A stretch of 64,000 nt of DNA from Chloroflexota bacterium (GTDB lineage: Bacteria; Chloroflexota; Dehalococcoidia; Bin125): positions 81,920 to 145,919 of the forward strand of contig JAPPFB010000017.1 in NCBI GenBank assembly GCA_028875225.1, given 5' to 3'. The position numbers and the translations under genes are program-made. This document shows, in pieces, positions 20,438 through 62,973 of this stretch (its first letter is position 1; every line of letters starts with the position of its first letter). Below the pieces are notes generated by a model. That model was not told the DNA's origin, searched no databases, and worked only from the letters and a program-made list of their open reading frames with translations.

Positions 20438-20497
20438 TTGCTTCAACGAACAGGTACACCACGCTGGGGGACCACGCTGAGAGAAGGGACCACGACC

Positions 20498-22633
<2,136 letters not shown>

Positions 22634-22654: not shown

Positions 22655-23119
22655 ATGTGGCAAGACGTCGTCAATCTGCTCCGCCGCGTCGGCCTGCTCA
22701 GGCCGATGGAAGAGATGGCCGTGCGGCTGACGGGCTATTCGATCATGGGCCGGATGATCACCTGGAACGCGGGGGTTCCGTACGTCGACTCGCTGATGCT
22801 GCGTTCGGTGGGCGCGAAGTCGGGGGATCTGCGTGACGCCGTGCTGTTTTATGTGCCCGACGGCCAGAGCTGGGTGATCATCGGTTCGGTTGGCGGCGGT
22901 CCGAAGCATCCGGCCTGGGTTCACAACCTTCGGGCGAATCCGCACGCCTGGGTCTTTGTCGACCGCAGTCGACATCCGGTTGAGGCGGAGTTCCTTGAGG
23001 GTGACGAGCGGGAACGCCTGTGGTCGGCGGCGGCCGAGGTCTGGCCGCCCTACCTCCAGTACGCGGAACGGGCGCAGCCGCGAGTGATCGAAATCATCCG
23101 ACTCAATCGTTCCACTTGA
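22655..23119 (+). CDS. Deazaflavin (F420H2)-dependent nitroreductase family protein (DDN-like)
   Basis: PF04075-type signature GGGPKHPAWVHNLRANPHAWV. Confidence 0.75.
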   Translation: MWQDVVNLLRRVGLLRPMEEMAVRLTGYSIMGRMITWNAGVPYVDSLMLRSVGAKSGDLRDAVLFYVPDGQSWVIIGSVGGGPKHPAWVHNLRANPHAWVFVDRSRHPVEAEFLEGDERERLWSAAAEVWPPYLQYAERAQPRVIEIIRLNRST

Positions 23120-23148
23120 TCCCGGTTCCGTCGCTTCACGCGGCGATC

Positions 23149-23186
23149 TGGGTCTGGGCCCCGTGTCAAACACGGGGCATCGCGTA
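23149..23186. repeat. Family D REP-like hairpin (GTCTGGGCCCCGTG-tcaaa-CACGGGGCATCG)
   Basis: Between convergent DDN-like and LLM genes; copies at 25284, 27920 and 28053. Confidence 0.8.
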
Positions 23187-23210
23187 GGTGGCCGAATGGA
23201 CCAGACCTGG

Positions 23211-24131
23211 CTACAGCGCCGGCGCCAGCGAACCGAGGAACTCTTCGGTGCGTGTACGTTCGTCTTCGGAACCGAAGACGACACCGACAAAGTCGGTCGT
23301 GCCGGCGTCCTTGAGTTGACGCAGCTGCGTCTCGATCTGTTCCTCGGTGCCGAGGATTGCGACGTCTTCAGGGTGGGCCGCGCCCTGCTTGTCCAGCATT
23401 GAGCGGTAGGACGGCAGTCGCTCGTAGTTGGCGAACTGCTCGGCAGCTGTGGCACGCGCGGCGTCGACGTTGGAACTGAGCATGACCGGCAGTCCGACGA
23501 CGATGCGGGCATGGGGCCGGCCGGCGTCGTCGGCGGCGGCGTTCATCGTCGGGGCGATGTATGACTCGACGACGCTGGCGGCGGTCATCCAGAGGATGGT
23601 GCCGTCGGTGCGGGCGCCGGCGAGGCGAAGCATCGCGGGACCCATGGCGGCGAGCATGCAGGAGACAGGCTTCTCGGCGTCGGGGATGTCGAGGCTGACC
23701 TGGCCGCGATAGTGTTCGCCATCGGTCTGGACCGCCTCGCCGTTGAGGAGCGGGAGCAGGACATCGAGGTACTCCTTCATGTGCCGGGCGGGGCGGTCGA
23801 AGGAGTAGCCGAACATGTTCTCGATCACGATCTTGTGCGAGAGGCCGATGCCCATGACGAATCGCTTGCCTCCGGCTGCGGCCTGGACGGTGAGCGCCTG
23901 CTGGGCCATTGCGTGCGGATGTCGCGGATAGGTCGGGACCACTGCGGTCATCAGCTCGATCCGCTCGGTTTGCGCTCCGGCGAGCGTGAGCGCGCCCATG
24001 GCGTCGTGGGAGAAGATGTTGGCCATGCCGAAAGTGGAGAATCCGGCCGCCTCGGCCGATTGGGCCTGCTCGACGATGCTCTGCACGCTGGGCGCCGGTC
24101 CGGCGCCGCCGATGAAGATGCCAATTTGCAT
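23211..24131 (-). CDS. LLM-class (luciferase-like) F420-dependent oxidoreductase
   Basis: Luciferase-like TIM-barrel sequence (MQIGIFIGG...ELMTAVVPTYPRHP...GIGLSHK). Confidence 0.75.
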   Translation of the reverse strand: MQIGIFIGGAGPAPSVQSIVEQAQSAEAAGFSTFGMANIFSHDAMGALTLAGAQTERIELMTAVVPTYPRHPHAMAQQALTVQAAAGGKRFVMGIGLSHKIVIENMFGYSFDRPARHMKEYLDVLLPLLNGEAVQTDGEHYRGQVSLDIPDAEKPVSCMLAAMGPAMLRLAGARTDGTILWMTAASVVESYIAPTMNAAADDAGRPHARIVVGLPVMLSSNVDAARATAAEQFANYERLPSYRSMLDKQGAAHPEDVAILGTEEQIETQLRQLKDAGTTDFVGVVFGSEDERTRTEEFLGSLAPAL

Positions 24132-24155
24132 GTCATGCCTCCCTGGTGGGATTCG

Positions 24156-25144
24156 CTATGAGGGACGCACGAGGATGCGTCCGCGGACGCCGCCGGCGAG
24201 GATTTTCGCGGCTGCGTCGGGGACTTCTTCGAGTCCGATGCGTGACTCAACGAGGTCGAGCAAGTTGCGGTTGCGGAAGTCCTCGGCCATGCGCGACCAG
24301 AGGCGAGGGCGGTCGTCGCTGGGCCAGTAGACGGACTCGATGCCGACCAGGGCGACGCCGCGCAGGATGAAGGGCATCACGTTGGTCTCGACGCCAACGC
24401 CGCCGGTCAGTCCGGACAGCGCCACGACGCCTCCGTACTTGGTCTGCCTGAGGATCGACGCCGAGGTCGAGCCGCCGACGGGGTCGACGGCGGCCGCCCA
24501 ACGCTCGCGCTCGATCGGACGCCGAGATTCGGCGGCCAGCTCTTCGCGGTCGAGGATTTCCGTTGCTCCGAGCGCCCGCAGGAAGTCGTGCTCAGCGGAC
24601 TTGCCGGTGCTGGCGTGGACCTCGTAGCCGCGGGCGGCGAGCATGGCCACGGCGGTTGAGCCGACGCCGCCCGTCGCGCCGCTGACGATCACGGGCCCGG
24701 CGTCGGGTCCGACGCCACCTTTCTCGATCACATCGACCGACATGGCGGCAGTGATTCCGGCGGTGCCCAGGACCATCGCTTCTTCAGACGTCATGCCATC
24801 GGGCAGCGGCGCCAGCCAGTCGGCCGGCACGCGGACTCGCTCGGCGTACCCGCCCGGATGGGCGGTACCGAGGTCGTAGCCGGTGGCCACGACCGAATCA
24901 CCCGCCGAGTAGCGAGAATCTGAGGACTCCAGCACCGTGCCGGCGAAGTCGATGCCGATCGTCATCGGGTACTTGAAGACGACGCGGCCGTTTGGCGTGC
25001 AGGCGAGGCCGTCCTTGTAGTTCAGGTCGGACCACTCGACGGCCACCGTGACATCGCCTTCGGGCAGCGATGATTCCTCCAGCGTCTGCACCGACGCGGT
25101 GAAGTCGTCCTCGTCCTTGTTGACCACAAACGCTCGAAAACTCA
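24156..25144 (-). CDS. NADPH:quinone oxidoreductase, YhdH/AcuI family (MDR superfamily)
   Basis: LNYKDGLA motif; GATGGVGSTAV Rossmann. GTG start at 25144 with AGGAGA SD. The longer track ORF (to 25463) reads through an intergenic repeat array and is rejected. Confidence 0.8.
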
Positions 25145-25283
25145 CGGGGTCTCCTGTCTCATCGGTTGCAGTCAGGCTAGGTGGGAGTCTAGGTGCGGGG
25201 AAGGGTACGGGCTGGTGGGCGAGTGGCAAGCTCTTGATGATGGGCTCGGCGAGGGGGACTTCGACCTGCGAGCGAGGATCGAC

Positions 25284-25400
25284 GTCTGGGCCCCGCATCA
25301 AGTGCGGGGCATCGGAGTTGGGGGCGAGAGTGCGGGGCATCGGAGAGGAAGGAGTGCGAGGCATCGGAACGGGGGATGGGGGAGTGTGTGGGGAGGGGGC
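25284..25400. repeat. Family D hairpin followed by a degenerate tandem array of its 3' half (AGTGCGGGGCATCGGAG, three copies, period ~27)
   Basis: gtctgggccccgcatcaagtgcggggcatcggag, then agtgcggggcatcggag, then agtgcgaggcatcggaa, within a G-rich spacer. Confidence 0.75.
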
Positions 25401-25496
25401 GGGAGGTGGGGAAATGATGGTCGGTGCGGACCGCTGCGAGATGGCCGCGGCGAGCGCGGCCATGACGGAACCAGGGTGCGGGGATGGCGGTAGGGG

Positions 25497-26336
25497 CTAA
25501 TGGAGGCGGGCGGCGAGCATGGGGTTGGCGGTCTGGGGATCTGATTCGGCTCCGTCGTGGAGTTCGTGGCGGACGACGACTCCCTCGGCGCTGAAATCGA
25601 CGATGGTGGCTCCACCGGAGTGGCGCGGTGCGCCGGGGTAGTAGGCCGGGACGGTGCCGTCTCCGACGCCTTCGTGGACGTCGATGTGGCCGAGCGCGAC
25701 GTAGTCGGCGCCGAGCGACTGAATTTCTGAGGAGTGAATCTGGTAGGAGTAGCGCGATTCGCCAGTGCCGACGTAGTAGCCGTGGGCCATGGCCACGCGC
25801 CAGACGTACTGGCCGGAGCCGTTGGCCCAGGCGGGCATTGCGGAGGCGGGTGAGAAGTCGTTGTAGCTCTCGTGCGCCTGGCCCCAGAACTGGACGCCGT
25901 GCTCTTCGAGCAGGATCAACTCGCCCTCGGCCGAGGCGATGATGTGCACGTTGGACGGAAAGGCGTCGGCGAACTTCTGGTAGATGCCGTCGGGCATGTG
26001 CGGGTCGTGGTTTCCGGGGAGGACGACGACGGGCCGGCCGACGGCCTCCATCAGTTCCCCCGTGACTTCGACGTAGGGTCGCTTGACGCGGACGTGATCG
26101 AAGAAGTCGCCGGCGATGGCGACGACGTCGACATCGGCCTCAACACCGAGTTCCAGCACGTGCTGGAAGGCCTTGAGCGCCGGCTCCAGCGTTTCCGAGC
26201 CGTCGCGTTCGGTCTTACAGGGCTGCGAGGTGTAGGCGCCCAGGTGGACGTCGGAGGTGTGCAGCATCCGCAGCGGGCGAACCTCCTCCGTGACCTCCGA
26301 CAACCCGGCTCGCGGCGAATAAACGTCAGTACTCAT
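25497..26336 (-). CDS. Calcineurin-like metallophosphoesterase (SbcD/DNA-repair-exonuclease-like)
   Basis: MPE motifs HTSDVHLG, GDFFD, GNHD; start could be ATG at 26336 or 26264. Confidence 0.75.
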   Translation of the reverse strand: MSTDVYSPRAGLSEVTEEVRPLRMLHTSDVHLGAYTSQPCKTERDGSETLEPALKAFQHVLELGVEADVDVVAIAGDFFDHVRVKRPYVEVTGELMEAVGRPVVVLPGNHDPHMPDGIYQKFADAFPSNVHIIASAEGELILLEEHGVQFWGQAHESYNDFSPASAMPAWANGSGQYVWRVAMAHGYYVGTGESRYSYQIHSSEIQSLGADYVALGHIDVHEGVGDGTVPAYYPGAPRHSGGATIVDFSAEGVVVRHELHDGAESDPQTANPMLAARLH

Positions 26337-26420
26337 GCAGCGCACGCATCCCCGGCACCGCTCCCGCACGGCGCAATGCTCCTCGCAGACTAGCAGCAGA
26401 CCGGGATTACACTGAGCGTC

Positions 26421-27899
26421 ATGACCACTGAAACCACCACCGAATTCGAGACCGTGATCGGTCTCGAAGTGCACTGCCAGTTGCGCACGCAGAGCAAGAT
26501 GTTCTGCCGCTGTCCGGCCGATTACGCCTCAGCCGAGCCGAACACCTACGTCTGCCCGCTCTGCCTGGGCATGCCGGGGACACTGCCGGTGATTAACCGG
26601 ACGGCGGTCGAATGGACGATCCGCACGGCGCTCGCGCTGAACATGACGATTCCCGAGTTGTCGAAGTTCGACCGCAAGAACTATCCCTACCCCGACCTGA
26701 TGAAGGGCTACCAGATTTCGCAGTACGACATGCCGCTGTCGGAGGGCGGCTGGATGGATGTCGAGACGGAGGAGCTGGGCAAGCGGCGGATTGGGATTAC
26801 CAGGGTTCACCTGGAGGAAGACACGGCGCGGCTGCTGCATCGGGAGAACGAGGCGGGCGAGCGCTTCTCGCTGGTCGACGTCAACCGCTCGGGCGTGCCG
26901 CTGATGGAGATTGTCTCGGAGCCGGACATGCGCTCAGCGGACGAGGCGCGCTCGTACCTGGTGCAGCTCCGGCAGATCCTGCGCTACCTCGGAGTTTCGA
27001 CCGCAGACATGGAGAAGGGTTCGTTCCGCTGCGACGCAAACGTCTCGCTGCGGCCGGTTGGTTCGTCAGAGCTGGGCGCCAAGGTCGAGATCAAGAACAT
27101 GAACTCGTTCCGCGGCGTGCACAGCGCGCTCGAGCATGAGGTCAAGCGGCAGGCGGACGTGCTGCGCTCGGGCGGCACGATCGACCAGGAGACGCGCGGC
27201 TGGGATGAGGACCGGCAGATCACGTTGTCACAGCGCTCGAAGGAAGAGGCGCACGACTACCGCTACTTCCCCGAGCCCGATCTGCCACCGCTCTCGATCA
27301 CCAGTGAAGAGGTCGAGGCGCTGCGCAGCCAGCTTCCCGAACTGCCGGAGGATCGGCGGGCCAGGTTCAAGTCCGACTACGGTCTCGGCGAGTTCGAAGC
27401 CAACCTGCTGACCGAGGAGCCGTCGCGCGCGGACTACTTCGACCAGACGGTTGCGGCGCTCAAGGACTCGTCCAACGCCAGAGAGGCGGCGAACTGGATC
27501 ACCGGCGACCTGTTCGCGCAGATCAACAAGGATCCGTCGCATCCCGATCTCGAGAACCAGCCGATCCGGCCGGAGCAGATTGCGGAGCTGGTCGGGCTGA
27601 TCGTCGGCGGCGACATCTCGCGCAGCCAGGCGAGAACGGTCTTCGAGTCGATGTACGAGAGCGGCGACGCGCCAGCGGACATCGTGAAGGCAAAGGGGCT
27701 GACGCAGATCAGCGGCGAGGATGCGCTATCGCCGATCATCAGCCAGGTGATCGGCGATAACCCGGACGCGGTTGAGGATTATCGGTCGGGGAAAGAGGCG
27801 GCGCTGAAGTTCCTGGTCGGTCAGGTGATGCGGCATTCTCGCGGTCAGGCGAATCCGGCGCAGGCGTCGGAGTTGTTGGTGTCGGCGTTGAGCGAGTAG
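26421..27899 (+). CDS. gatB: Asp-tRNA(Asn)/Glu-tRNA(Gln) amidotransferase subunit B
   Basis: ETVIGLEVHCQL N-terminus; GatB/YqeY C-terminal domain; no gatA or gatC adjacent. Confidence 0.93.
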   Translation: MTTETTTEFETVIGLEVHCQLRTQSKMFCRCPADYASAEPNTYVCPLCLGMPGTLPVINRTAVEWTIRTALALNMTIPELSKFDRKNYPYPDLMKGYQISQYDMPLSEGGWMDVETEELGKRRIGITRVHLEEDTARLLHRENEAGERFSLVDVNRSGVPLMEIVSEPDMRSADEARSYLVQLRQILRYLGVSTADMEKGSFRCDANVSLRPVGSSELGAKVEIKNMNSFRGVHSALEHEVKRQADVLRSGGTIDQETRGWDEDRQITLSQRSKEEAHDYRYFPEPDLPPLSITSEEVEALRSQLPELPEDRRARFKSDYGLGEFEANLLTEEPSRADYFDQTVAALKDSSNAREAANWITGDLFAQINKDPSHPDLENQPIRPEQIAELVGLIVGGDISRSQARTVFESMYESGDAPADIVKAKGLTQISGEDALSPIISQVIGDNPDAVEDYRSGKEAALKFLVGQVMRHSRGQANPAQASELLVSALSE

Positions 27900-27919
27900 C
27901 AGAGCCTTGCCCCTCTGAT

Positions 27920-28120
27920 TCGATGCCCCGTGCTTGACACGGGGCCCAGAGCACGTCGCTTTACTCGCGAGGCGGCGATGCACCTTGCACAGCCTTTGAT
28001 AGCGGGATCCGTCCGAGACGAGAAGCTACTCTCATCCGCGCTCGTCGGCTGAGGTCTGGGCCCCGTGTCAAGCACGGGGCATCGCGAGCATGGGCATCGG
28101 GAGCACGGGGTATCGGGATG
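27920..28120. repeat. Inverted pair of Family D hairpins flanking about 100 nt (MITE-like), plus trailing half-repeats
   Basis: 27920-27951 is the reverse complement of 28053-28086 (31 of 32 nt); lies between convergent gatB and AKR paralog 1. Confidence 0.75.
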
Positions 28121-28153
28121 GAGTGGTCGTTTGCGTCGATGGTCGTCGATGCG

Positions 28154-29173
28154 CTAGCGGCGCATGGCGGCGACTCTTGGGTTGTGGATGATCTGCGGGG
28201 TGTTCTGGTAGGTGGGGACGCCGACGTCGTCGAAGATCTGGTTGATTCCGCTTCGGATTTCCTCGGTCAGTTTCCAGTCGGTGGCGGCGACGTTCTCCTC
28301 GAGTTCTCGCTCGTTTCGCATCCCGACGAGGGCGCAGGAGACTCCGGGATGGTCGAGGACCCAGGCGAGCGCGAGCTGGGCAACGGTCTTGCCGTAGCCG
28401 TCGGCGAATTGGGCGAGTCGGTTGCAGACTTCGACTTCGCGGCGGAAGTGCTCACGCTCGAACAGGGGCAGGTTGAAGGCGAGCGGGTTGCGACGCCAGT
28501 CGCCCTCTTCGAAGGTGTGCTCGGGCGTGAAGGCTCCGGTCAGCAGGCCAAAGGCGAGTGAGCCGTAGGACATGAAGCCGACTCCGTTGGCCATGCACCA
28601 GGGCAGGACTCGGGCCTCCATGCGCCGATCGAACATGTGGTATCCGATCTGGTTGGCCGTGATGTGTCCGTACCGCTCGCATTCCTGCATCAGGTCGATG
28701 TCGTAGTTCGAGACGCCATAGTGTCGAATCTTGCCGCTCTGCTTCAGTTCTTCGAGGGCCTCCATCGTTTCCTCGATCGGCGTGTCGAAGTCGGGCCAGT
28801 GGATCAGGAGCAGGTCCAGATAGTCCGTGTTCAGACGCCGGAGACAGCCCTCCGCGCACTCGATGACGTTCTGCTTCGACGAGTTGAGTCCCGTCATGGT
28901 CGGCGTGTCGTCGAAATCGAATCCGACTTTGGTGACGAGGATGATCTCGTTGCGCCGGCTGCCGAGCGCTCTGGCGAGTAGTTCTTCCGAGAGAAAGGGT
29001 CCGTAGCCTTCGGCGGTGTCGAAGAGGGTGATGCCGCGGTCGATGGCCATGTTGACGGCGCGGGAGGCCTCGTCGACGTCGATATGGCCGTACATCGTCG
29101 TGCTCATCTCCCAGGTGCCGAAGCCGACCGCGGAGGAGACGAGATCTGTGTTGCCGAATCGTCGCTGTTCCAT
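28154..29173 (-). CDS. Aldo/keto reductase (paralog 1 of 3)
   Basis: AKR fold: FGTWEM, IDRGITLFDTAEGYG, IHWPD, GVSNYD; tandem with two paralogs. Confidence 0.88.
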   Translation of the reverse strand: MEQRRFGNTDLVSSAVGFGTWEMSTTMYGHIDVDEASRAVNMAIDRGITLFDTAEGYGPFLSEELLARALGSRRNEIILVTKVGFDFDDTPTMTGLNSSKQNVIECAEGCLRRLNTDYLDLLLIHWPDFDTPIEETMEALEELKQSGKIRHYGVSNYDIDLMQECERYGHITANQIGYHMFDRRMEARVLPWCMANGVGFMSYGSLAFGLLTGAFTPEHTFEEGDWRRNPLAFNLPLFEREHFRREVEVCNRLAQFADGYGKTVAQLALAWVLDHPGVSCALVGMRNERELEENVAATDWKLTEEIRSGINQIFDDVGVPTYQNTPQIIHNPRVAAMRR

Positions 29174-29188
29174 CGTCGTTGCCGAACC

Positions 29189-30178
29189 TCAGATCGCCTG
29201 AGGGGCGTTCTGGTAGGTCGGGACTCCGACTTCTTCGAAGATCTCGTTGATTGCGTTGCGGATCTCCTCGTTGAGTTTCCAGTCGGTGGCGGCGACGTTT
29301 TCCTCGAGTTCTCGCTCGTTTCTCATGCCGACGAGGGCGCAAGAGACGGCGGGATGGTCGAGTACCCAGGCGAGGGCGAGTTGGGCGACGGTCTTGTTGT
29401 AGCCGTCGGCGAGTTCGACGAGGCGGTTGGTGACTTCGACTTCTTTGCGGAAATGCTCCTCCTGGAAGAGGGGGAGGTTGAAGGCCATGCCGCTGCGCCG
29501 CCAGTCGCCCTCTTCGAAGGTGGTGTCGGGCGTGAAGGCGCCGGTCAGCAGGCCGAAGCCGAGCGAGCCATAGGCCATGTAGCCGACGCCGTTGGCGAGA
29601 CACCAGGGCAGGACGCGCGATTCCATGCGGCGGTCGAACATGTTGTAGCCGACCTGGTTGGCGGCGATGTGTCCGTACTGCTCGCACTCTTCCATCATGT
29701 CGATGTTGAAGTTGGAGACGCCGTAGTGTCGGATTTTGCCGCTCTGCTTGAGTTCTTCGAGGCCCTCCATCGTTTCCTCGATCGGCGTGTCGTGATCGGG
29801 CCAGTGGATCAGCATCAGGTCGACGAAGTCGGTGTTGAGGCGGCGAAGACAATCATCCGTGTGCTCGATGATGTGTGCCTTCTTCGAGTTGCGGCCGATC
29901 ACCTTGGGCGTGTCGTCGTAGTCGAAGCCAACCTTGGTCACGAGCACGATTTCGTTGCGGCGGTTGCCGAGCGCTTTGGCCAGCAGCTCCTCGGAGTGGT
30001 AGGGGCCGTAGACCTCGGCGGTGTCGAAGAGGGTGATGCCGCGGTCGATTGCCATGTTGACGGCGCGAGCGGCCTCATCGACGTCGATGTGGCCGTACAT
30101 GGTGGTGCTCATCTCCCAGGTGCCGAAGCCGACGGCCGAGGCGACCAGGTCGGTGTTGCCGAATTGTCGTTGTTCCAT
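29189..30178 (-). CDS. Aldo/keto reductase (paralog 2 of 3)
   Basis: About 85-90% aa identity to paralog 1 by eye. Confidence 0.88.
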   Translation of the reverse strand: MEQRQFGNTDLVASAVGFGTWEMSTTMYGHIDVDEAARAVNMAIDRGITLFDTAEVYGPYHSEELLAKALGNRRNEIVLVTKVGFDYDDTPKVIGRNSKKAHIIEHTDDCLRRLNTDFVDLMLIHWPDHDTPIEETMEGLEELKQSGKIRHYGVSNFNIDMMEECEQYGHIAANQVGYNMFDRRMESRVLPWCLANGVGYMAYGSLGFGLLTGAFTPDTTFEEGDWRRSGMAFNLPLFQEEHFRKEVEVTNRLVELADGYNKTVAQLALAWVLDHPAVSCALVGMRNERELEENVAATDWKLNEEIRNAINEIFEEVGVPTYQNAPQAI

Positions 30179-30218
30179 AGTGTTCCTTGGTGGGTGATGG
30201 TGGGTTGGACTGGGCCGG

Positions 30219-30272
30219 AAGGGACCCCCTCAGCCTTCGGCAGCTCCCCCTGCAAGGGGGAGCCGGGAGGTG
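30219..30272 (-). repeat. Family A hairpin element between AKR paralogs 3 and 2
   Basis: Reverse complement reads CTCCCCC-ttgc-AGGGGGAG + ctGCCGAAGGC + tGAGGGGGTCCC; same orientation as the flanking minus-strand genes. Confidence 0.75.
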
Positions 30273-30275
30273 GAC

Positions 30276-31307
30276 CTAGTCGCGGAGGTTGCGACGGGCG
30301 CCGGTGGCTCGGGCGACGTGGACGACCTGGTCGAGGTTCTGATAGGTGGGCACCCCGACCTCGGCGAAGATCTCGTTGACTCCGCTGCGGATTTCCTCGG
30401 TCAGCTTCCAGTCGGTGGCGGCGACGTTCTCTTCGAGTTCGCGCTCGTTGCGCATACCGACCAGGGCGCAGCTGACCCCTGGGTGGTCGAGGACCCAGGC
30501 GATGCCGAGCTGGGCGCAGGTCTTGCCGTAGCCGTCGGCGAGCTCCGCGAGTCGGTTGGCGATCTCGACCTCCTGCCTGAAGCGGTCGCTCTCGAACAGG
30601 GGCAGGTTGAAGGCGGTGCCGTTGCGCCGCCAGTCGCTCTCGTCGAATTGGTGATCGGGCTCGAACGCGGCGGTCAAGAGACCGAAGGCGAGCGAGCCGT
30701 AGGACATGAAGCCGACGCCGTTGGCCATGCACCAGGGCAACACGCGAGACTCCATCCGCCGGTCGAACATGTGGTAGCCGACCTGGTTGGCGACGATCGT
30801 GCCGTGACGCTGGCACTCCTCCATCATGTCGATGTTGAAGTTGGAGACGCCGTAATGGCGGATCTTGCCGGCCTGCTTCAATTCTTCCAGACCCTCCATC
30901 GTCTCTTCGAAGGGCGTGTCGTGGTCGGGCCAGTGAATCAGCATCAGGTCGACGTAGTCGGTGTTCAGCCGGCGCAGGCAACCCTCGGTGTGCTCGATGA
31001 TGTGGTCCTTCTTGGAGTTGAGGCCGATCACCTGGGGCACGTCGTTGTAGTCGAAGCCGACCTTGGTCACCAACACAACTTCGTTGCGCCGGCTGCCCAG
31101 GCCCTCGGCGAGCAGCTCCTCGGAGTGATTCGGGCCGTATACCTCGGCCGTGTCGAACAGGGTGATGCCGCGGTCGATCGCCATGTTCACGGCGCGTGCG
31201 GCCTCGCTGCGGTCGATGTGACCGTACATGTTGCCGCTCATCTCCCACGTGCCGAAGCCGACGGCGGAAGCCACCAGGTCGCTGTTTCCGAATCGTCGCT
31301 GTTCCAT
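30276..31307 (-). CDS. Aldo/keto reductase (paralog 3 of 3)
   Basis: About 75% identity to paralogs 1 and 2; start taken at MEQRRFGNSD (31307) to match the paralogs. Confidence 0.85.
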   Translation of the reverse strand: MEQRRFGNSDLVASAVGFGTWEMSGNMYGHIDRSEAARAVNMAIDRGITLFDTAEVYGPNHSEELLAEGLGSRRNEVVLVTKVGFDYNDVPQVIGLNSKKDHIIEHTEGCLRRLNTDYVDLMLIHWPDHDTPFEETMEGLEELKQAGKIRHYGVSNFNIDMMEECQRHGTIVANQVGYHMFDRRMESRVLPWCMANGVGFMSYGSLAFGLLTAAFEPDHQFDESDWRRNGTAFNLPLFESDRFRQEVEIANRLAELADGYGKTCAQLGIAWVLDHPGVSCALVGMRNERELEENVAATDWKLTEEIRSGVNEIFAEVGVPTYQNLDQVVHVARATGARRNLRD

Positions 31308-46170: not shown

Positions 46171-46180
46171 CGCCAGTCAG

Positions 46181-46276
46181 GCCCTCACCCTAACCCTCTC
46201 CCTTGGGGAGAGGGAAAACGAGCGAAGAGCGAAAGATCGGCTCCCTCTCCCACTGGGAGAGGGCTGGGGTGAGGGC
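46181..46276. repeat. Inverted pair of Family B modules forming a long potential hairpin (acn to mdh spacer)
   Basis: GCCCTCACCCTAACCctctcccTTGGggagaggg ... ccctctcccACTGggagagggCTGGGGTGAGGGC with a 26-nt spacer. Confidence 0.8.
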
Positions 46277-46408
46277 CCGCCAAGAGGCAAGTCTCGTCAT
46301 CTCAGCCACTCACATAGCAGACTCAAAGCCCCCTATCCGATAACAATTGGACAAGTCCCGTCTATTCCCCGCGGGTATGGCTGCCCGTGTTCAGAAAGGT
46401 CCGAGACC

Positions 46409-62830: not shown

Positions 62831-62938
62831 ATCTGATGTCCTTCCCAGTGCCTCGTTACGCAGGCAGTTTAGATGATGGTCGTGAGAACCACTCAGCTCG
62901 CACCCCGAATTCATCGATTCATGACTCGGACTTCGGTT

Positions 62939-62973
62939 CCCTCTCCCTGAGGGAGAGGGTTAGGGTGAGGGCG
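62939..62973 (+). repeat. Family B hairpin repeat
   Basis: ccctctcccTGAGggagagggTTAGGGTGAGGGC; an inverted partial copy follows at 63021-63047. Confidence 0.8.

Follow-up and report, generated by a model that had tools for sequence, protein, structure and literature searches.

The stretch of DNA analysed here (the window; 64 kb of contig JAPPFB010000017.1 from a Chloroflexota bacterium) carries four copies of a short palindromic hairpin in the spacers between its genes. Pfam gives the gene order as sigma-70 (+), F420H2-dependent quinone reductase (22655-23119, +), luciferase-like monooxygenase (23211-24131, -), a zinc-type alcohol dehydrogenase (ADH)-like gene (-), metallophosphoesterase (-, stop codon at 25497), gatB (26421-27899, +) and three tandem aldo/keto reductases (AKRs, -), the first of which occupies 28154-29173 with its stop codon side at 28154. 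The hairpins are 30-31 nt long, follow the pattern TCTGG-GCCCCGYR-TCAAG-YRCGGGGC-ATCG and start at 23152 (+), 25284 (+), 27921 (-) and 28054 (+). All four had been recognized in the original prediction, at 23149, 25284, 27920 and 28053, coordinates that were off by 1-3 nt. The copies at 23152, 27921 and 28054 are each at most one mismatch away from the 31-mer GTCTGGGCCCCGTGTCAAGCACGGGGCATCG; a search tolerating up to three mismatches returned these 3 copies against 0.00 expected (100 shuffles). In the copy at 25284 the sole difference from the 31-mer is that both sides of the stem have changed in a compensatory way, from GTG/CAC to GCA/TGC. Beyond these four, the 64-kb window contained no further copy of the family. 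The features are listed in Table 1.

Table 1. Repeats and associated features in the window
Feature	Position	Strand	Description
Hairpin copy 1	23152-23182	+	GTCTGG-GCCCCGTG-TCAAA-CACGGGGC-ATCG; loop TCAAA
Insert, 91 nt	23120-23210	+	Lineage-specific; between TGA 23117-23119 (F420H2-dependent quinone reductase) and CTA 23211-23213 (convergent luciferase-like monooxygenase)
Spurious N-terminal extension	25146-25463	-	Pro/Ser/Ala-rich translation of the repeat region; real ADH-like gene at ~24156-25145
Hairpin copy 2	25284-25314	+	Compensatory stem variant GCCCCGCA/TGCGGGGC; between the start of the ADH-like gene (~25145) and the metallophosphoesterase stop codon (25497)
Polar tail of copy 2	25315-25420	+	Extra 3' arms GTGCGGGGCATCG (25330-25342) and GTGCGAGGCATCG (25354-25366), then a G-rich tract
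Type I element	27900-28010	-	Hairpin 27921-27951 and a 5' extension ending in GACGTGCTC before TGGG; begins right after the gatB stop codon (27897-27899)
Type II element	28008-28084	+	5' extension ending in GGCTGAGGTC before TGGG, then hairpin 28054-28084
Inverted heterodimer, 164 nt	27921-28084		Type I + type II; CCAGA tails face each other, CGATG ends point outward; between the convergent gatB and AKR genes
Two degenerate 3'-arm reiterations	28085-28117	+	GCATGGGCATCG (~28088-28099) and GCACGGGGTATCG (28103-28115); between copy 4 and the AKR stop codon (28154)

A dispersed family of intergenic hairpins

Scanning one genome per species with the pattern TGGGCCCCGNNTCAANNNCGGGGCAT gave matches in at least 105 stretches; nearly all of those listed come from Dehalococcoidia/Chloroflexota metagenome-assembled genomes (MAGs), and a minority from Alphaproteobacteria. 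We counted copies in the Chloroflexota loci and the window (~0.9 Mb together), allowing up to four mismatches in the 26 specified positions. This yielded 184 copies in 19 Chloroflexota/Dehalococcoidia assemblies plus the window, true counts being higher, and a single MAG contributed 65 copies in 175 kb. The further copies that the original prediction called for are thus abundant. They are dispersed over many Chloroflexota contigs. There is no sign of carriage by phages, since none of the viral contigs held a copy. With genes called by a simple codon-usage method that reproduces the public calls in the window, 179 of the 184 copies (97%) fall outside genes, and repeats are found in 29 of the 93 convergent intergenic regions, in 17 of the 93 divergent ones and in 37 of the 355 between unidirectional genes.

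As to the host, sponge-metagenome assemblies have contigs that encode the very same GatB protein (ROBB21-1 scaffold_48, GCA_034423335.1 and GCA_028874415.1). The label ROBB21 and the bin names IRC and RHO would fit the coral-reef sponge MAG study PMC8163846.

The unit of high identity spans ~32 nt and consists of unpaired TCTGG, a G+C-rich stem of 8 bp, the loop TCAAG and unpaired ATCG(GA). Loop and unpaired flanks are invariant in an alignment of 119 copies. Two inner stem positions that had been left free in the search pattern pair in 116-117 of these, as U-A (71), C-G (46) or G-C (1) at one and as G-C (84) or A-U (33) at the other, that is, in the combinations TG/CA, CA/TG and CG/CG. Changes on both sides of the stem account for 80 cells of the alignment, a value reached by none of 500 shuffles, and 99.7% of the cells are paired, against 25-59% when the partner columns were slid as a control. 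These counts are of sequences and not of events; the data call for no fewer than two or three compensatory switches, and a passage between TG/CA and CA/TG would naturally go through CG/CG. Compensatory change preserves the stem, and selection acts on the hairpin. Related hairpins combine this loop with other stems (CCCCCGCG, TCCCCGCA and others).

Sequence outside the hairpin is less constrained. In the same alignment, a loosely conserved 5' extension of ~50 nt starts near cTGAGgTGAGG and comes in two forms: type I ends in TTGGGTGCTC (short form TGGGTGCTC) and type II in GATCGAGGTC (short form CGAGGTC). Downstream of the hairpin lies a G-rich 3' tail. At copy 2, the extension is a weakly conserved ~40 nt (~25244-25283). 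Read as its reverse complement, the 3' end of gatB also showed a weak apparent similarity to the type II extension. BLAST likeness between non-orthologous copies spans just ~32-44 nt, and the high-identity unit is therefore of the size of a repetitive extragenic palindromic (REP) sequence. Consensus folding of 119 single elements and 20 oriented doublets gave no conserved structure outside the hairpin cores, and a structured RNA in the 5' extension was rejected accordingly. We also rejected a known structured RNA: no Rfam covariance model matched the 64-kb window at gathering score, and in E-value mode the interval 22900-28400 gave one match at chance level (E = 4.8).

A 30-nt palindrome with an 8-bp stem kept by selection and a 5-nt loop, present in many copies that lie nearly all between genes, with a preference for convergent and unidirectional regions, has the properties of a REP. 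We consider it likely that the four hairpins are members of a family of short intergenic palindromes, repeated in sponge-associated Dehalococcoidia (Chloroflexota), that resembles REPs and the bacterial interspersed mosaic elements (BIMEs) built from them, with copies that would be made by a dedicated mechanism and that may act in RNA. As a bacterial repeat, such a family is nothing out of the ordinary; its lineage is little studied and uncultivated.

Orientation relative to genes and base skew

In unidirectional regions the transcript of the upstream gene reads the CGAUG-first strand in 27 regions versus 11 (p = 0.014; 51 versus 16 copies), an orientation that all window copies fit. A converging stop codon lies within 40 nt of 21 of 74 copies. 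Convergent regions are occupied most often, and there a doublet provides both converging genes with the same RNA hairpin. The hairpin, moreover, is invariant while the DNA around it diverges. All this would fit hairpins that are primarily functional 3'-end signals, either factor-dependent terminators or mRNA-stabilizing structures, whose reiterated C-rich arms form a Rho-loading tract and which arose and are homogenized by gene conversion with no transposition involved.

Other observations do not agree with that explanation. A U-tract is missing after the stem on either strand (ATCGGAGGG follows on one and CCAGACC on the other), so that an intrinsic, Rho-independent terminator could be rejected; a terminator and promoter scan likewise detected no canonical signal at any copy. 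The 17 occupied divergent regions are places where transcripts should not end. Tandem arrays of three to four units with a 134-nt period (L044, L073) and the nesting of hairpins in loops (see below) exceed the needs of a signal, and 30 invariant nucleotides, including unpaired flanks and loop, at more than 180 sites in 19 assemblies are more than a hairpin signal requires. We therefore regard it as unlikely that 3'-end signalling is the primary explanation. It does not exclude the REP-like one, with which it is compatible.

We also compared the orientation of the hairpins with the strand-symmetric part of the GC skew of coding regions, after removing doublets and masking 400 nt around each copy. 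The strand that reads from TCTGG to CATCG is the locally G-rich strand in 35 loci versus 6 (p = 5e-6), and this orientation is found in convergent (9:1) and divergent (8:3) regions too. The genes themselves have no strand bias relative to the local skew (121 versus 125 kb). In these Chloroflexota loci the sense strands of called genes are C-rich on average, with a GC skew of -0.042 that is negative in 65% of 542 genes. The local strand-symmetric skew is large (median absolute R 0.066), and the way a repeat points can be predicted from it.

A polarity set by replication rather than by genes would be expected of a motif of chromosome architecture, a polar DNA site for a host protein such as gyrase, a nucleoid protein or a translocase of the FtsK type that recognizes the G-rich tail. 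The tails do hold words like GGGNAGGG, which may be akin to FtsK-orienting sequences. The 8-kb pieces, however, cannot show that the skew reflects replication, and genes lack a strand bias relative to it. Uneven skew linked to transcription could yield the same orientation, given that sense strands are C-rich. The same polarity would also follow from strand-specific insertion into the lagging-strand template, as is practised by IS200/IS605 insertion sequences and is part of the explanation that we favour. An architectural motif is, in our judgement, very unlikely.

Doublets, arrays and turnover between relatives

Units occur singly, in tandem arrays with a period of 134 nt, or as inverted heterodimers of ~174 nt composed of type I and type II. 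Among neighbouring copies at most 400 nt apart there were 31 (-)(+), 7 (+)(-) and 37 tandem pairs. The (-)(+) pairs are spaced 140-145 nt start to start in 22 of 31 cases (134 nt in the window), and all 24 distinct doublets examined combine type I with type II. Oriented alike, the doublets align over ~174 nt and most of the 24, from several genomes, are 173-175 nt long. In the window the arms 27921-27950 and 28055-28084 are 100% complementary and 104 nt apart, much as first described. The ~100 nt between them had been taken for unique sequence, which they are not: they are the two 5' extensions, whose pattern and length are conserved in doublets from other genomes. A BIME is made up of two REP types that face in opposite directions across a defined linker and that also form arrays, and the fixed spacing and constant composition of the recurring doublets bear out the BIME-like unit that was proposed for the inverted pair.

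Complete units are arranged three to four in a row in L044 (232-658), L073 (7010-7437), L077 (54-495) and L027 (7121-7480; MAG jk18x34bins.13). The period is 134 nt, except in L027 with 165-169 nt, and L044 and L073 repeat the sequence that separates the hairpins as well. A CRISPR array was rejected on this ground, the 134-nt arrays repeating the whole unit including the would-be spacer in L044 and L073 and the copies being dispersed otherwise.

The doublet does not fold as one structure. Its inner halves score like shuffled controls when compared as inverted copies of each other (z mostly below 2.5), the consensus fold of doublets pairs only the two cores, and in some doublets (L079:7271, L105) the two hairpins have different stems. 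For these reasons we rejected a REPIN, in which the whole doublet would form one long hairpin. We also set aside DNA or RNA folding of the doublet as a whole, where low energy follows trivially from the pairing of two identical cores.

The geometry of the window pair had also been likened to a miniature inverted-repeat transposable element (MITE), with 30-nt terminal inverted repeats read by a DDE transposase and with single hairpins as decayed remnants. Perfect 30-nt inverted repeats around 104 nt, the fixed doublet length of 173-175 nt and the 5'-extension pattern upstream of many single copies, which could be the remnant of a partner, would all suit such an element. Each terminal repeat, however, is itself a self-folding palindrome, and stems differ between the hairpins of some doublets; 122 of the 184 copies lie outside doublets, and tandem pairs (37) outnumber inverted ones (31). 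The interior is non-palindromic, and its two halves never belong to the same type. In relatives the orthologous site has the halves in tandem (L056) or reduced to a single copy (L042). No target-site duplication was visible at the one clean filled/empty pair, which concerns a single copy and not a doublet, and no transposase gene was noticed in the inspected regions, where the search was aimed at RAYT/Y1 types only. The MITE reading has, in our view, next to no chance of being right.

Reiteration of the 3' arm is a polar trait of the family. At copy 2, GTGCGGGGCATCG occurs at 25302 inside the full hairpin and again in the tail, successive arms lying 28 and 24 nt apart, roughly the period of ~27 first noted; in the window as a whole the half-site pattern has 8 matches versus 1.76 expected. 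One to four extra 3' arms were found within 90 nt downstream of 26 of the 184 copies, mostly at distances of 17-22 nt, and an extra 5' arm upstream of none of the 184. The extra arms always have the stem variant of the adjacent hairpin, which marks them as local duplications and fits the slippage or amplification that had been suggested for them.

The same repeats affect gene calling. The long open reading frame (ORF) 24156-25463 was suspected of reading through the array, and both homologue alignment and Pfam agree: residues 2-5 of solved YhdH/AcuI-family homologues (324-331 aa) align to residues 108-111 of the 435-aa ORF, and Pfam ADH_N begins at residue 135. Because the homologues start at residue 108-111, the first 106 codons are read-through of the repeat region. 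One public annotation calls the ADH-like protein at 329 aa. The repeats corrupt gene calls in these MAGs, the ADH-like ORF being 65-106 codons too long in public annotations.

Orthologous loci of three related MAGs (78-97% protein identity) were compared with the window. Between the F420-dependent reductase and monooxygenase genes, the window has 91 nt between the stop codons, which abut in L051 (TTGA directly followed by TCA) and L096 (TTGA directly followed by CTA). Within this 91-nt insert only positions 32-63, the hairpin, resemble other copies of the family, and comparison with the abutting stops reveals no target duplication. At the gatB/AKR site, a type I and a type II element follow each other in tandem in L056, and L042 has a single copy joining a type I 5' part to a type II 3' flank, the product expected from deletion between two direct hairpins. 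In the window type I is inverted beside type II, the orthologous type I being oppositely oriented in L056 and L042; the window type II element and its L056 orthologue are 95% identical over 56 nt.

In L051 and L096 the ADH/metallophosphoesterase site holds an additional ORF, with repeats from several families interleaved. This ORF (L051 6376-7203, -; L096 from ~7580) has a helix-turn-helix-like N-terminal part (including YLAQRGYSQRKIAEQLKISKATVTSDL) and is absent from the window, where the intergenic region measures 350 nt versus ~1400. At L096 7330-7372 a 23-nt hairpin from a different family sits within the loop of a hairpin of the family studied here, splitting it (GCCCCGCATC, then the inserted CCCTGTTCAAGCCAGGGGCCGGC, then AAGTGCGGGGC). 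This nested insertion suggests that hairpin loops are insertion targets.

By comparison of flanks, many other orthologous intergenic regions differ in copy number; in these pairs the intergenic DNA is too diverged for exact boundaries to be drawn. Close relatives differ by gain and loss of copies, by deletion between direct hairpins and by re-orientation. The polymorphism looked for between relatives is present, both as the 91-nt insert versus abutting stops and in the gatB/AKR arrangements. Because copies are numerous and occupancy differs between close relatives, neither a lack of copies elsewhere nor identical occupancy, the two findings that would have told against the original prediction, applies. 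The family marks intergenic regions that rearrange between closely related symbionts. It makes likely breakpoints in short-read assemblies and supplies strain-level markers for sponge Dehalococcoidia.

How copies arise we infer from sequence. Tentatively, and with rather less than even confidence, we suggest that, once extruded in single-stranded DNA, the hairpin is the substrate for cutting and rejoining by a hairpin-specific enzyme acting in trans, be it a RAYT (REP-associated tyrosine transposase)/IS200-like HUH protein or another. Local slippage would give rise to the 3'-arm reiterations, and recombination between hairpins to deletions and arrays. Copies would persist mostly just downstream of genes, probably by placing the stable hairpin CGAUG-GCCCCGYR-CUUGA-YRCGGGGC-CCAGA, after C-rich RNA, at mRNA 3' ends, where, by analogy with the REPs of Escherichia coli, it could protect or delimit transcripts.

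Several results weigh against the REP-like explanation and its mechanism. Many copies occupy the same orthologous sites across species (L006/L008/L038, L009/L025 and L033/L076), so that turnover must be slow and recent transposition is not demonstrated. There is only one clean filled/empty pair, and two thirds of its insert are not family sequence. G·T and C·A mismatches (10 versus 14) are without the asymmetry that would indicate a functional strand. No RAYT-like protein scored below E = 0.3 in the window, 105 genome loci and 29 metagenome loci, ~0.9 Mb of repeat-bearing DNA that was searched with E. coli RayT, a profile of 120 RayT homologues and a scan for the HUH...Y..NP motif; the profile is purely enterobacterial and hence has little reach. 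Finally, the consensus carries the tag CGAT, the GTAG and CGTC tags of the published REP superfamilies both being absent.

Related repeats and known systems

The minority of matches in Alphaproteobacteria share the core CTGG-GCCCCGGR-TCAAG-YCCGGGGC-AT, with stems GGA/TCC or GGG/CCC, which is multi-copy there. It was found at four loci of Microbaculum marinum (L005, L012, L021, L108), at five of the Methyloligellaceae MAG OZ245780 (L043, L047, L063, L078, L097) and in other Alphaproteobacteria, among them further Hyphomicrobiales; it is also present in the loci L022, L026, L074 and L109. This form dominates the 29 metagenome matches (most of L111-L139). It often has an inverted partner ~24 nt upstream, the same tail-to-tail doublet with a shorter linker. 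The search pattern forced 21 bases, and the features shared beyond these are the fifth loop base, the complementarity of the stem and the C before TGGG. Since by a rough estimate less than one chance match is expected in the whole collection, the alphaproteobacterial matches represent genuine families of repeats.

Common descent, horizontal transfer and convergence would account equally for the shared core as far as these sequences go. Both groups have the same loop and flanks, varied but complementary stems and the same doublets. On these grounds one may imagine, as a long shot, that CTGG-GCCCCGnn-TCAAG-nnCGGGGC-AT is the recognition site of one trans-acting enzyme or host factor and that site and factor moved together between phyla. 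The exclusive reiteration of the 3' arm and the orientation with the G-rich strand would then be the footprint of strand-specific, replication-coupled copying that starts from a nick in or next to the loop and involves no classical RAYT.

Further repeats were noticed in the window. A second hairpin family (CCCTCTCCC-n4-GGGAGAGGG, then TTAGGGTGAGGGC) is present at 1794-1832, 46180-46216, 46238-46277 and 62934-62972, in both orientations and 77-97% alike, and is interleaved with the hairpins studied here in L051 and L096. Three more pairs of G+C-rich palindromic repeats (1963-2002/30221-30260, 48868-48894/52981-53007 and 61020-61046/61141-61167; for example, TCTCCCCCCGC-TTTG-CGGGGGGAGA) presumably represent other REP-like families of the same genome. 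The three tandem AKR paralogues (28154-31307) are 77-85% identical in DNA over 300-nt blocks, with start-to-start distances of 1005 and 1129 nt, and their order is conserved in L042 and L056. In the sigma-70 ORF (20438-22633) region 1.2 begins only at residue 307, after a long N-terminal part, and the start assigned to the ORF varies among public annotations, giving 650 or 711 aa.

The family resembles the Correia and enterobacterial repetitive intergenic consensus (ERIC) elements, both MITEs, in being non-coding, ~100-200 nt long, bounded by inverted repeats, intergenic and variable between strains. It differs from them in that no target duplication was seen, the ends fold by themselves and also occur alone, and the interior is poorly conserved. 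With the REPINs of Pseudomonas it shares the inverted doublet of narrowly fixed spacing as the commonest arrangement, and some singles may be remnants of doublets there as here. In contrast to REPINs and their RAYTs, its halves are always of different type, there is no long interior hairpin, no RAYT was found and GTAG is lacking.

The REP/BIMEs of E. coli and other Enterobacteriaceae are closer in kind. Both are short, G+C-rich, imperfect palindromes that are intergenic and mostly downstream of genes; in both, distinct types, set in opposite orientation and a fixed distance apart, build mosaic units and arrays, among which other repeat families are interspersed. The present family differs in its stem, loop and flanks (TCTGG and ATCG(GA), with neither GTAG nor CTAC in the consensus), in that no RAYT was found near any copy and in its uncultivated Chloroflexota host. 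We know of no BIME for which polar reiteration of one arm, the 3' arm only, has been described. A well-resolved REP/BIME-like system in Chloroflexota, without GTAG and so far without a RAYT, bears on how 'orphan' REP families of the CGTC type propagate, and the core held in common with Alphaproteobacteria, the strand polarity and the strictly 3' arm reiteration provide leads.

Published REPs have a stem of 8-9 bp, a loop of 4-5 nt and a CCA tail, form inverted heterodimers and lie between convergent and unidirectional ORFs (PMC3733652). The same paper describes GTAG-23 REPs of another member of the Chloroflexi, Thermomicrobium roseum, whose genome is G+C-rich; these form clustered blocks at few loci and are inserted within small palindromes (PMC3733652). 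Insertion in a palindrome recalls the nested hairpin of L096, while tag and sequence are different and our family is dispersed over many contigs. For the CGTC superfamily, Di Nocera et al. (2013) give a terminal unpaired CGTC (variants TGTC and CCTC) and A/T residues at stem positions 1 and 2; CGTC-type REPs are without an associated transposase and predominate in Alphaproteobacteria (PMC3733652). Read on the reverse strand, our unit consists of the tag CGAT, an 8-bp stem with the loop CTTGA and the tail CCAGA. Lengths of stem and loop and the CCA tail agree with that account, as do the predominance of inverted heterodimers, the placement between convergent and unidirectional genes and the failure to find an associated transposase. 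Against the same description, the tag is CGAT-G in nearly all Chloroflexota copies instead of CGTC, TGTC or CCTC, the first stem pairs are G-C and C-G (GCCCCG.../...CGGGGC) instead of A/T, and clusters and arrays are common here and rare there. Compared with the CGTC superfamily through its published description, the family is REP/BIME-like in kind and stands outside both the GTAG and the CGTC superfamilies.

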